Part shown: positions 35,885 through 39,397 of the stretch, piece by piece
How positions within the stretch are numbered: position 1 is the first letter of the stretch
Layout of the letters: each line of letters opens with the position of its first letter
Assembly: GCA_003566635.1 (NCBI GenBank)
Contig: PXCK01000085.1
Location: 1,241-65,240, forward strand
Direction: 5' to 3'
Length of the DNA: 64,000 nucleotides
Origin: Balneolia bacterium
GTDB taxonomy: Bacteria; Bacteroidota; Rhodothermia; Balneolales; Cyclonatronaceae
The notes under the pieces: model-generated
Told to the model about the DNA's origin: nothing
The model's input: the letters and a program-made list of their open reading frames with translations, nothing else
Database searches by the model: none
Made by a program: the position numbers and the translations under genes

Positions 35885-38800
35885 TTAAAATACGGCACTT
35901 AGTGTGAATTTCATAGTTTGAGCTACAGGTTGGCTAGTTAAAGTTCTTCCATCGTAGTTAAGCGTTGCTCTTAAAAACTCGTTTATTCTGTAGGTTGCTT
36001 GTACCGACCAAGACCATGTATTCCCTTCGCCTGCTCCTTCTGTTAATTCAAAAAGTCCAAAACTTGAACTGGCTCCATCTATAGAATTTGAGCGATATTC
36101 GATTCTGGCAGTAGTTTGAATCAAGTTTTGATAGAACCAACGAGCATCACTGAATATGCTATATCCATTTAGTACTGCTGGCTCTTGCGGTAAAACATCT
36201 TCTCTGTTTCGGATAGAAAAACCACCACCTAACTGTAAACTTCTTCTGTAGTCGTACCTAAACGATGGCTCTACAGAACGACTTCTAATGTCGAAACTTC
36301 TAGAATTAAGCTGGGTATCTGCTTGATTATTTTTTCCAATTTGTAAAATAATATTCGCTGACCAAGACCTTGTGAACCTGTGATTTAGTGTAGTTCGAAA
36401 GTCTTGAAGACGAGTCTTTTCTAAAGTGTTGGCTCTGCGGCTTAAGCCTGCAACATTTTCGTAGGTAAATCGAAGATCAGTAGAGTCAATATTTCTTAGT
36501 ATATGCAGATCCTGAAGCATAGTGAAATTGCCATCAATCGTATTTTCTTCGTCTCTGTATGATGAAAAGTTAAAAAGTAACACATCGAGTAAGTCACCTG
36601 ATGTGTTTTGCTCCCGAATTGCATAGGTGGATTGCAGCATTAAGTTCGATAAAATCCGAGCAATTGAGCTATTCCCATCTAAAAAGTTTTTAGGTTCAAT
36701 ACGAGTTCTGAGACGTGTATTGACCGATGCTACCGAAAAAACCTCATCAGTTGGAATAAATTGCCTTATAAAAGTTCCTTCATTGGGTAGTTGCTCCGGG
36801 AAAAATTCATCAACTTGTTGAACTCCATCACCATTGAGGTCTATCCAAACATAATTTCCCAACTCAGGACCAACCTCAACAAAAGTTTCCTGAAGTAATG
36901 GTCTGTTTTCTGTACCACCCTCATATATGAAATTTACCTCCAGCCCTCTGTTTAAAGTTCTCCAGTCAGTTTCTGATCTGATAAGTACACTTTGAGTTTC
37001 CTGGCTTTGTATTTCTCCGGTAGCAGAACCTAAAAAAGTTTTTTCACGCCATGTTATGGTTTGATTATTCGTAATATTTTCAGCTTCATATCGCGTAGTT
37101 AACCTGTATGTATATGACTCTGATTCCGGGATAAACGCTCCATCAAATACTATGTCATCACTTCTATAGGTGATGCCCGATGAAGCTGAAAAACGTTCTG
37201 TAAATCTAAATGCCACTCCGGGGGTCAATTCATAGAACCTAAAAGAATCCTGCCTTAGCATATCGGTCGTTTTATCTCTTTGTCTTCTGTTTTCACTCGA
37301 AAAACGAAATGATGGGGTTATACCAATCCCTGAAATTGGTATGGAGTAGCTGGTTTCACCACCTTGCCTAAACCAACCACCTTTTTGTAGTAGCTGGTTA
37401 TTTCTACTTTGGTTAAAATCGGCTGCATAACTAATAAGCGGCCATTCGGGCTCGGATGAATTTAATCTAAATGTTTGTCTTCTGCTTGATAATGTTTCAC
37501 GTTCGAGCCAACCACCTGAAACGTTTATGCCTGAGAATTCAGTTACCATCAAATTGAAATCTGCCTCTGCTAACCTTTCTTCCTCAAGGCCAACATCCTG
37601 GATATTCCAGTTTCTTTCAAACTCTACATCTCTTGTTCGATCCATGAAGCTAAAATTTGCCCCTGTATGTCTATAACGTGCTTCAAAACCTGCTTTCCCA
37701 ATAACCGTTTGTGTAGGCTTTACTCTGTAACCTCCGATAAATGCCAGGTCGGTATTTGTATTGTTATCAATTTGGCTGAAACGGTTCCTGTCGTGATCGC
37801 TGACTGCAAATTCACCAAAAAATACCGAATTAGATGTTATCCTCGCTTCACTACGCAGAGATATAATTTGATGAAGTTCAGGTGCCTGCAATCTTCTAAA
37901 CGGTTCATAAGCTCCATTTCCGGTACCGACCCATTCATAAACTATTCCATTGACCGAGGTTTGAGCTCTTCGATAAGATCCCAACCCATCCCCCACTCTG
38001 CTAAAGCGAACCCTCCATTCGCTTCGCGGATCTCCGGGCAGGTTTTTAAACACTTCAATTTCTTGTCCTTGAAAAACGGTATCAATCAATGCATATTGAA
38101 CAAAATCTGCATTTGGACGAAAGCCTACACTTTCAGCCCCTGAAATAATCGCCCTATCTGGATCATTGCCTGCATTTCGCAGGATTTCAATTTCTTCTTC
38201 GCTTAAACCAAATTCACTCTGAGAATCACGGCTGTCCCCTTCCCTTAGGTAGGTCACACCCAGACTTAATCGCCCATCCCATAAATCGTTAACTTCTGAT
38301 TCCCCGGCAAGTATTGTTCTGTTATATGCTTGTGTTACATATTGAAAATCGACTGTTATTCTTAAATCTGATGTAATTAATCTGTTATTGGTGAATTGGA
38401 TTTCGCCCAAACCATAATCGATTATATAGTCGTTTTCTTCACCCCTAACCATTCTTACACCATTGATGTATACCCGCTCACTACCTGCCAATACGATAAT
38501 AAACTGCTCACCATCTACACCGGAAAGCCTGTAAGGCCCCTGAACTCCCTCTCGTGCAGTTAGGTTCATTGTTCTATACCTGCCTCTAACTACAGCAGCA
38601 GATGCACTATGATTGCCGTATGAGCCTAACCCTGTTTGCACATCTATACCTTGTAATCTTCTTTCAATCTGCGCAAACTCACTATTACGATAACTTATAT
38701 CTATATCACCAAGTTGTAGGGTTCCAAAAGGGTTACGAAGTTGAATAAACACTTTATCGAATTCCCTAAGGTTTTGAGTCGTACCATCGGGTTGTATGGG

Positions 38801-39397
38801 GGTACTTTGGTCGGTTAGTGTAGCTAATATTTCCAAATCATCCGTTAGATTACCACTCAACTCAAACCTAAGACCACTTTCAAGTGTTACATCTTGATTA
38901 GAGCCCACTATAATTCCCCGAGTTAATGAGCCACTTCGTTGCAGGTTTGTTGATCCAAATAGATCATCGCTCGATACCCGTTGTTGAATCTGAAAACCAG
39001 TACTTGTAGTATCGCCTTCACTTATAAGTGAGTCTGCTGGGAGTTCTACTAACTCACGAGAGCGGATTACGGGTGAAAAGGAAAATGGCTGTCTTTTGTA
39101 GTGGATAGCAAGGTTAAGAATATTAATTTCTAAATCGGGCTGTAGCTTTAGTTTCAGGTCACCGGTAGATGAGTCGTAAGTCCAATCTATAAGAGTGTCA
39201 ACCGGGCTTTCCTCTTCATCAATAAAACGTATTGAGTCTATTTCAACCCAAAAACCAAGATGTATGGTAGTATCGACCTTGCTAATGCTAAAAAAATCGG
39301 TTTTGAGGGATACTGATTGGGCAAACAACCTATCATTACAGGAGAGTAGCATACCACATGCTATTAAAATTATACCTGTAAATATTTTTTTAGTCAT
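35885..39397 (-). CDS. giant outer-membrane beta-barrel protein, SprA-like (half-size paralogue of the T9SS translocon)
   Basis: 1170 aa. Signal peptide with possible lipobox LLSC and a C-terminal aromatic residue (TLSAVF). Shares blocks with the SprA at 56126-63526, for example [34 protein letters not shown]...RITVDFQ against GSVRVTANGIELTENVDYQVDYVLGNIVITN...IEVEFE. Confidence 0.6.
   Translation of the reverse strand: [1170 protein letters not shown]

Follow-up and report, generated by a model that had tools for sequence, protein, structure and literature searches.

To our knowledge, SprA (or Sov; models TIGR04189 and PF14349; PDB entries 6H3I, 6H3J, 8GL6, and 8GL8), a giant single-chain outer-membrane β-barrel of 36 strands, is the only barrel of such size to have been characterised experimentally, and it tends to be regarded as unique. 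It possesses an extracellular cap, and its conserved N-terminus binds the proteins SkpA and SprE (PMC10994853). Even higher strand numbers have been predicted from contact maps, in a superfamily of single-chain barrels of 38 and 40 strands, families 002 and 003 (Solan et al., 2021, PNAS; PMC8346858). Here, we describe a gene located in a 64,000-nucleotide stretch of DNA from a Balneolia bacterium (GenBank assembly GCA_003566635.1, contig PXCK01000085.1, positions 1,241 to 65,240; hereafter, the window), whose product of 1170 amino acids is predicted to form a barrel of about 38 strands. In a first-pass annotation of the window, this product was presented as a half-size SprA paralogue and as a possible energised channel, on account of the exbB and exbD genes that lie beside it.

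The gene occupies 35885..39397 of the window on the minus strand (stop codon included), with an ATG start, as given by the list of open reading frames (ORFs) and the translation; the first-pass annotation had the ORF right but left its strand unstated, and all of the peptide strings it quoted are present in the 1170-amino-acid protein and in the SprA of 2466 amino acids encoded in the same window. It had also pointed to a signal peptide and a C-terminal Phe, and both are seen. The N-terminus, over 27 residues, resembles a Sec signal peptide; the peptide itself would span residues 1–26 (39320..39397, minus), with a likely cleavage site after FA and before Q, and residues 2–19 are helical in the structure models described below. 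At least 90% of 86 relatives share Gln27, right after this site, and the same holds for F1170, at the C-terminus. The position of the glutamine presumably reflects the 'Q-rule' of Bacteroidota for substrates of signal peptidase I. The public protein record (P0001) is 1155 amino acids long instead of 1170, the difference probably falling in the start region at 39353–39397 (minus). The longer form is more plausible, because the shorter N-terminal start would lose most of the hydrophobic core of the signal peptide. The record for the window's SprA (P0121) is similarly shorter than its ORF, with 2450 against 2466 amino acids (probably in the region 63479–63526, minus).

Two AlphaFold2 (AF2) models were computed, one from a 37-sequence alignment (mean predicted local distance difference test, pLDDT, 76.9; predicted template modelling score, pTM, 0.59) and one from an 86-sequence alignment (pLDDT 84.9, pTM 0.72), and the layout of strands is identical in both. 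The signal helix is followed by a small β-domain at residues 30–118, a disordered linker, and 40 strands assigned by DSSP between residues 151 and 1169, with interruptions by two inserts (272–357, which holds an SprA-like module, and 394–507) and one long loop (842–875). In both models the N-terminal domain (39044..39310, minus) is a small β-sandwich, presumably periplasmic; it is poorly conserved, and many distant relatives align by tblastn only from residue ~96 or ~140. Barrel strands b1–b7 (residues 151–270; 38588..38947, minus), as delimited by DSSP, covariation of adjacent strands, and the conservation profile, form the best-conserved part of the family. Strands b10–b38 (residues 508–1170; 35888..37876, minus) have pLDDT values mostly above 90 and hairpin covariation far above the non-adjacent background, and they end in a C-terminal β-signal, ...TLSAVF.

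The pairing of the strands was also assessed by mean-field direct coupling analysis (DCA) of the strand columns in two data sets, with effective sequence numbers of 256 and then 346. Nearly every adjacent pair of strands scored between 0.44 and 1.5, against a non-adjacent background of 0.29 ± 0.11, which supports antiparallel pairing. The top non-adjacent pair joins residues 262–271 with 359–372; therefore, the DSSP strands at 273–280 and 346–354 belong to an inserted module, and 38 wall strands remain. Covariation thus places residues 273–354 outside the barrel wall. With 38 strands and a periplasmic N-terminus, all ten connections of at least 10 residues that lead from an odd strand to the next even one are extracellular, and the sole long periplasmic connection is 901–919, a pattern expected for an outer-membrane protein. 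In addition, the dyad hydrophobicity of the strands, which measures amphipathic alternation, is 1.86, compared with 0.94 in non-barrel control segments. The first-pass proposal of a very large outer-membrane β-barrel is consequently in agreement with the models, with a count of ~38 strands, and with the features of outer-membrane barrels, as a signal peptide, amphipathic antiparallel strands, and a C-terminal aromatic β-signal are all present; some relatives occasionally and weakly match the OMP_b-brl and porin models of Pfam. A single closed barrel of 38 strands is well supported as a model prediction. If circular, such a barrel would have, by standard barrel geometry, a Cα radius of ~35 Å, slightly wider than one of 36 strands.

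When the two models were compared with the PDB by Foldseek, four SprA chains came out on top (E 3e-12 to 9e-10), and SprA is thus the nearest solved structure, as the first-pass annotation had suggested. Secondary matches were to SusC, BtuB, SlpA, MtrB, and LptD, at ~1e-8 to 1e-7. The best template modelling score (TM-score) normalised to the query was 0.31, to SprA 6h3j_A.

The protein resembles SprA in several respects. SprA is a giant single-chain barrel of 36 strands, and one of ~38 is predicted here; both proteins are encoded in the same genome; their conserved elements are concentrated near the N-terminal strands; they share a homologous module of ~55 amino acids, placed here in an extracellular connection; and the conserved loops and inserts are predicted to be extracellular here, as the cap is in SprA. 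However, the protein has 1170 amino acids and not 2466, it has no region matching the SprA N-terminus to which SkpA and SprE bind, only ~350 residues would be available for a cap instead of well over 1000, the SprA models do not match it, and no homology was detected outside the module. Families 002 and 003 are comparable in that they too are uncharacterised single-chain barrels with more strands than SprA; the text of that paper names neither taxa nor accessions for them, and the present family may or may not be among them (Solan et al., 2021; PMC8346858).

The other structural matches are more distant. TonB-dependent transporters and SusC (22 strands and a plug) are outer-membrane barrels too and lie in some genomes near exbBD. 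However, the present protein has no plug domain, TonB box region, or matching Pfam model, its strands are far more numerous, the target-normalised TM-score is ~0.3 or less, and its own linkage to exbBD is not conserved. SlpA of Deinococcus (30 strands), LptD (26), and MtrB (26) are likewise large barrels, in which other protein parts occupy or cap the lumen, but no sequence similarity to them was found here, nor SLH, OstA/LptD, or cytochrome-partner features. An identity with LptD was considered and rejected, as neither Pfam nor NCBIfam gave an OstA/LptD match and the LptD chains are only secondary Foldseek matches; more generally, scans with these two collections did not assign the protein to any characterised family.

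Apart from the first strands, the best-conserved segments of the family are all predicted to be extracellular. These segments are 151–220 (b1–b4 with their loop), 280–364 (the module), 462–507, 583–597, and 825–893 (a long hairpin). The loop between b3 and b4 (residues 197–214; 38756..38809, minus) is near-invariant over a stretch of 20 residues, with P200, Q202, P203, and G205 invariant in 86 sequences, and its pLDDT is below 50 in both AF2 models. This combination of near-invariance and low pLDDT suggests that it may contact a partner or a ligand. The second insert (residues 394–507; 37877..38218, minus) consists, according to DSSP, of helices and small strands, and its part from 462 to 507 is strongly conserved. 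The long loop between b25 and b26 (residues 842–875; 36773..36874, minus) carries the motif W-x-D-x-N-x-D-G-x-Q-Q-x-D-E-F-F, which resembles the calcium-binding motif of SdrD B domains; the 37-sequence family profile matches such domains in the PDB, and the Pfam SdrD_B model weakly matches 34 of the 37 members. Among the 37 Balneolales sequences, W851, D853, N855, D857, G858, Q861, E864, F865, and F866 are invariant; in the 86-sequence set only D853 of this motif remains so, with N855 and F865 conserved in at least 90%.

The 2466-amino-acid ORF (56126–63526, minus) is a true SprA, as the first-pass annotation had stated: it scores 1507.7 bits with TIGR04189, an equivalog model with a cut-off of 200 bits, and 315.8 bits (E 8e-94) with PF14349. 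That annotation had further aligned the 1170-amino-acid protein with this SprA in at least three blocks, given as (a) to (c) from the N- to the C-terminus. These blocks were examined with alignments of the family (A1, 37 sequences, and A3, 86 sequences) and of SprA (A2, 25 sequences), and by testing the hidden Markov model (HMM) of each block against the other family, with reversed sequences as controls. Only the central block (b) stood. A BLASTP comparison of the two proteins gives one significant alignment, of residues 289–403 with SprA 646–764 (31% identity, E 6e-7 for the pair), and hhalign comparisons of the family (A1, later A3) with A2 recover block (b) only, at a probability of 86.7–87.1% and E ~4e-6. 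The SprA HMM of this block matches 376 of 383 family members and the family HMM 119 of 120 SprAs, in each case at the equivalent position, and neither matches any reversed control. The signal sits wholly in a β-module of ~55 amino acids (residues 303–358, against SprA ~664–716). The two barrel strands that follow it (the 'SLGVTYLRE' region), when tested alone by HMM, gave no signal, and homology therefore does not demonstrably reach the barrel wall.

The two other blocks were not significant, either by hhalign or by HMMs. For block (a), which lies in strands b1–b7, hhalign returned a low-ranking alternative alignment of 146–239 with SprA 172–275 (P 0.27; P 0.003 in a restricted comparison). 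In a null of 56 SprA windows the proposed place came first, but with a score of 22.4 against 21.1 for the runner-up (mean 14.8, standard deviation 3.1), and the sub-block HMMs were in both directions at best equal to the reversed controls; at the sequence level, the similarity is marginal. For block (c), an out-of-register alignment of hairpins outscores the proposed one in hhalign, and its HMMs were no better than the controls in either direction, as would be expected of the generic hairpin similarity that we take it to be. With PF14349 and TIGR04189, no match at E ≤ 1 was obtained for the query or for 37 relatives, and since these curated models are unmatched the protein is not a member of the SprA family. 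The family profile likewise finds no SprA among PDB sequences, its only match being the calcium motif of SdrD. In the term 'half-size SprA paralogue', a shared module and SprA as the nearest structure can be kept; as a statement about homology, which was not found beyond ~55 amino acids, it overstates the sequence similarity of a single module.

This module is the sole region of the protein with significant homology to SprA. It was delimited by BLASTP, hhalign, and HMMs at residues 283–358 (38324..38551, minus), in the extracellular connection between b7 and b8, and its counterpart in the window's SprA at residues ~652–716 (61379..61573, minus). It is kept in the SprA of F. johnsoniae (6h3i, ~700–745), and because of this conservation it is an old feature of SprA; searches of the PDB with the module alone and with its profile gave no match, though it is visibly conserved in that protein. 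A likeness to phage proteins was found in both families. The module of the query, in which ~50 amino acids follow the pattern V-x-V-N-G...D-Y-x-V-D...G-x-I-x-F, weakly matches the distal-tail protein model TIGR02217 (E 6e-5) and DUF2460. Similarly, the copy in SprA (61346–61576, minus; SprA ~651–727) weakly matches phrog_807, a phage 'major tail protein with Ig-like domain' (E 9e-4), and the phage tail tube model NF052337 (E 1.8e-5). All of these matches, which extend from 6e-5 to 1e-3 for the pattern as a whole, are below the curated cut-offs and concern the small module only; the rest of the protein is not phage-like. Because this weak resemblance occurs in the family and in SprA, the module may be a mobile domain, and the SprA cap may contain a class of domain that is shared with phage tails. 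The N-terminal domain of the query (30–118; 39044–39310, minus) also weakly resembles the same SprA module (38–102 against 653–715; hhalign P 0.003), so that the module may have been duplicated within the protein.

The family is large. More than 1845 homologues were matched by word index, all of them named 'hypothetical'; at E ≤ 1e-3 it comprises 3920 clusters at 50% identity, and at least 581 genomic relatives were confirmed. It occurs in non-Bacteroidia lineages of the Bacteroidota/FCB group, namely the Balneolales, the Rhodothermales (e.g., Longimonas), the Ignavibacteria/Melioribacteraceae, and the basal Chlorobia (Thermochlorobacter, Chloroherpetonaceae). Cluster look-up of ten distant representatives returned only the name 'hypothetical protein', and when the query and 37 relatives were scanned with Pfam and NCBIfam, no SprA, TonB-dependent transporter, LptD, or other family was matched, with the exception of weak generic barrel, SdrD_B, and DUF2460 matches. 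A literature search found no paper describing the family, and the first-pass view that the protein is uncharacterised is thus upheld by the curated models and by the names of its relatives.

Several metagenome-assembled genomes (MAGs) titled 'uncultured Chitinophagales bacterium' also carry the gene, mostly with 33–41% identity in the best segment (loci L009, L036, L041, L043, L044, L046, L052, L058, and L064). Some of them, e.g., L009, L036, L043, L044, and L046, show the Balneolales-type order rpsR-rplI-barrel-exbB, and because of this full gene order the titles of these MAGs are probably taxonomic mislabels. The title 'uncultured Chlorobiaceae' of L077 may be another, since its closest relatives are genomes of Ignavibacteriae and Bacteroidota.

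Directly downstream of the barrel gene, on the same strand, lie exbB, an ORF of 93 amino acids, and two exbD genes. A hairpin resembling an intrinsic terminator (39446..39476, minus; 13-bp stem followed by a T run) marks the upstream boundary of the transcription unit in the gap between rplI and the barrel gene. Between the barrel stop codon and exbB, in a gap of 172 bp, there is a perfect σ70-type promoter, TTGACA-17-TATAAT (35768..35796, minus; 12/12 match), and another terminator-like hairpin with a 13-bp stem follows the second exbD (33594..33623, minus). In 11 further Balneolales loci, the corresponding gap holds the same perfect promoter (L002, 11734–11762; L004, 3726–3754; L005, 11723–11751; L006, 11632–11660; L007, 11804–11832; L009, 11750–11778; L018, 3381–3409; L036, 11227–11255; L041, 3984–4012; L044, 11356–11384; L046, 7097–7125). 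Because exbB has this conserved promoter of its own, the barrel gene and exbB are separate units. The surroundings are housekeeping genes (mfd, ftsH, a gene related to AIR synthase, rpsF-rpsR-rplI, and nuoL/M/N), and the whole block is syntenic across the Balneolales. The survey of exbB-exbD-exbD adjacency proposed in the first-pass annotation accordingly gave a divided answer: it is found across Balneolales loci, but exbB is absent nearby in the examined loci of Rhodothermales, Melioribacteraceae, Ignavibacteria-like bacteria, and Chlorobia. Outside the Balneolales no neighbour is conserved, with aconitase, thymidine kinase, NUDIX, PfkB, MacB/FtsX, ArsR, cupredoxin, Ogt, and UvrD genes varying from locus to locus, and no type 9 secretion gene is a conserved neighbour in the examined loci of the Balneolales or of the other groups. 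The adjacency of exbB and exbD is therefore core-genome synteny specific to the Balneolales and not functional coupling.

Some further observations concern these loci. Bacteroidia use a promoter type other than the σ70 consensus, and the conservation of a consensus promoter upstream of exbB is unusually strict for a lineage related to them. The 93-amino-acid ORF (34694–34975, minus), in the gap between exbB and the first exbD, matches no Pfam or NCBIfam model; tblastn detects it in the corresponding place of many but not all Balneolales loci, and its product may serve this ExbBD module as an accessory subunit not yet characterised. No TonB gene lies after exbD and before the terminator at 33594–33623. 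In Thermochlorobacter (L070, 5994–7694, plus), the barrel gene is directly preceded by one for a protein that combines a LamG domain with a type 9 C-terminal sorting domain, and in an Ignavibacteria-like locus (L082, 1–726 and 3556–6192) genes for a DUF5916 barrel protein and for an FG-GAP protein that bears such a sorting domain are found a few genes upstream; these neighbours are probably coincidental, as they are not conserved.

Taken together, these data lead us to favour, as the probable though by no means assured explanation, a Sec-exported protein that forms a single giant barrel of ~38 strands and acts as a capped conduit or housing with a wide lumen. The protein would be exported by Sec to the outer membrane, where its small and variable N-terminal β-domain would remain in the periplasm, ahead of ~38 membrane strands that run antiparallel in an uninterrupted meander. 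Were this meander to close into one barrel, it would equal the 36-strand SprA in width or slightly exceed it, with less than half of the mass. Conserved extracellular elements would provide a cap or gate over the lumen, namely the b3–b4 loop (with a conserved string of 16 residues), the SprA-type module of ~55 amino acids, the second insert of ~115 amino acids, a loop with the motif DRTRxVEFxRKWNI, and the long hairpin, which would be stabilised by calcium at the calcium-site-like motif on its tip. A conduit for a large substrate or partner, or a structure that houses one, is proposed because nearly all of the strongly conserved elements are predicted to be on the extracellular face. A transport role, considered by itself, is more tentative. 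The architecture suggests a minimal SprA-like barrel, which would achieve the general plan of SprA with ~350 cap residues rather than well over 1000. It is more speculative still, and in our opinion unlikely, that the family constitutes a second giant-pore translocon independent of type 9 secretion, a 'minimal SprA' that moves folded proteins or other very large cargo through the outer membrane and is gated by the extracellular inserts and the calcium-stabilised hairpin.

Several observations weigh against the capped single barrel. Closure between the first and last strands left no covariation signal in the two DCA data sets (score 0.21, at noise level), so that the argument for one closed barrel comes from AF2 confidence and the logic of the topology; among N-terminal windows, 129–138 pairs best with the last strand, also at noise level (0.56, with the 99th percentile at 0.58). 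The top rank of SprA in Foldseek may be partly an effect of its strand number and size, the TM-scores being 0.31 or less. A lumen of ~6–7 nm would have to be capped by only ~350 extracellular residues outside the barrel, which may call for a partner protein or for a barrel that is not circular. Finally, the lack of a conserved gene neighbour means that the genomes give no hint of a substrate or partner, and all members of the family are known from sequence and prediction, none by experiment.

The missing closure signal would also suit a chain that folds into two fused barrels, or into a barrel and an internal sheet, like the multi-barrel outer-membrane chains that have been reported (Solan et al., 2021; PMC8346858). 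However, no sub-barrel gave a closure signal either, and the sole strong non-adjacent DCA pair bridges an insert. Moreover, the chain has no extended linker at its middle, its pLDDT stays above 90 continuously over 508–1170 with a pTM of 0.72, and it superposes poorly on 22-strand barrels (target-normalised TM-score ~0.3 or less), SprA giving the best query-normalised score; the same study itself reports families of 38 and 40 strands that form single barrels (Solan et al., 2021; PMC8346858). We therefore regard an arrangement in several barrels as improbable. The ExbB/ExbD (or TonB)-energised uptake or export channel suggested by the first-pass annotation, which would be encoded as a functional unit together with the motor genes downstream of it, is still harder to sustain and appears very improbable: same-strand adjacency to exbB, the 93-amino-acid ORF, and both exbD genes holds across Balneolales loci, but exbB has its own perfect promoter, kept in 11 other genomes, the entire region consists of housekeeping genes in conserved order, none of the relatives examined outside the Balneolales shows the linkage, and there is no Plug or TonB_dep_Rec domain in the query (by Pfam) or in 37 relatives. 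The first-pass annotation had itself named a lack of conserved linkage to exbBD in relatives as grounds for refutation, and by that measure the energised channel is refuted. The protein is not a transporter that depends on TonB or ExbBD.

A true but reduced SprA paralogue deserves more attention than either of these, although we consider it unlikely. According to this explanation, an SprA-like ancestor lost its cap inserts and became a second translocon, served by PorV-like carriers and the GldLM/Hub energy chain. SprA chains do lead the Foldseek matches of both models, and the shared module lies in an early extracellular connection of the barrel, with its counterpart at SprA ~652–716 kept in F. 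johnsoniae. Block (a), though marginal, is collinear with (b); no other place in SprA scores higher, and in each family it coincides with the region of strongest conservation. In addition, the family is found in lineages with type 9 secretion, with SprA in the window itself and sorting-domain proteins near some relatives. However, no HMM or profile signal extends beyond the module of ~55 amino acids, a class of domain that is also present in phage tail proteins and may be mobile; the curated SprA models match neither the query nor 37 relatives; the SprA N-terminus that binds SkpA and SprE (PMC10994853) has no counterpart here; and no type 9 gene is a conserved neighbour. We therefore retain the capped single barrel as the preferred explanation.

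These results remove a misleading lead, as the proximity of ExbB and ExbD is a matter of synteny and not of functional coupling, and the shared module offers a handle on the evolution of the SprA cap. If the giant-pore translocon were confirmed, no other known single-chain membrane barrel would be as wide for its mass, and it would be present in Rhodothermia, Ignavibacteria, and Chlorobia. More generally, a family of ~3900 clusters whose barrel reaches a comparable width with half of the protein would be a minimal model for the assembly of giant barrels by BAM and for the sealing of their lumen, and it may reveal an unrecognised route of export or uptake in the Balneolales, Rhodothermales, Ignavibacteria, and basal Chlorobia.

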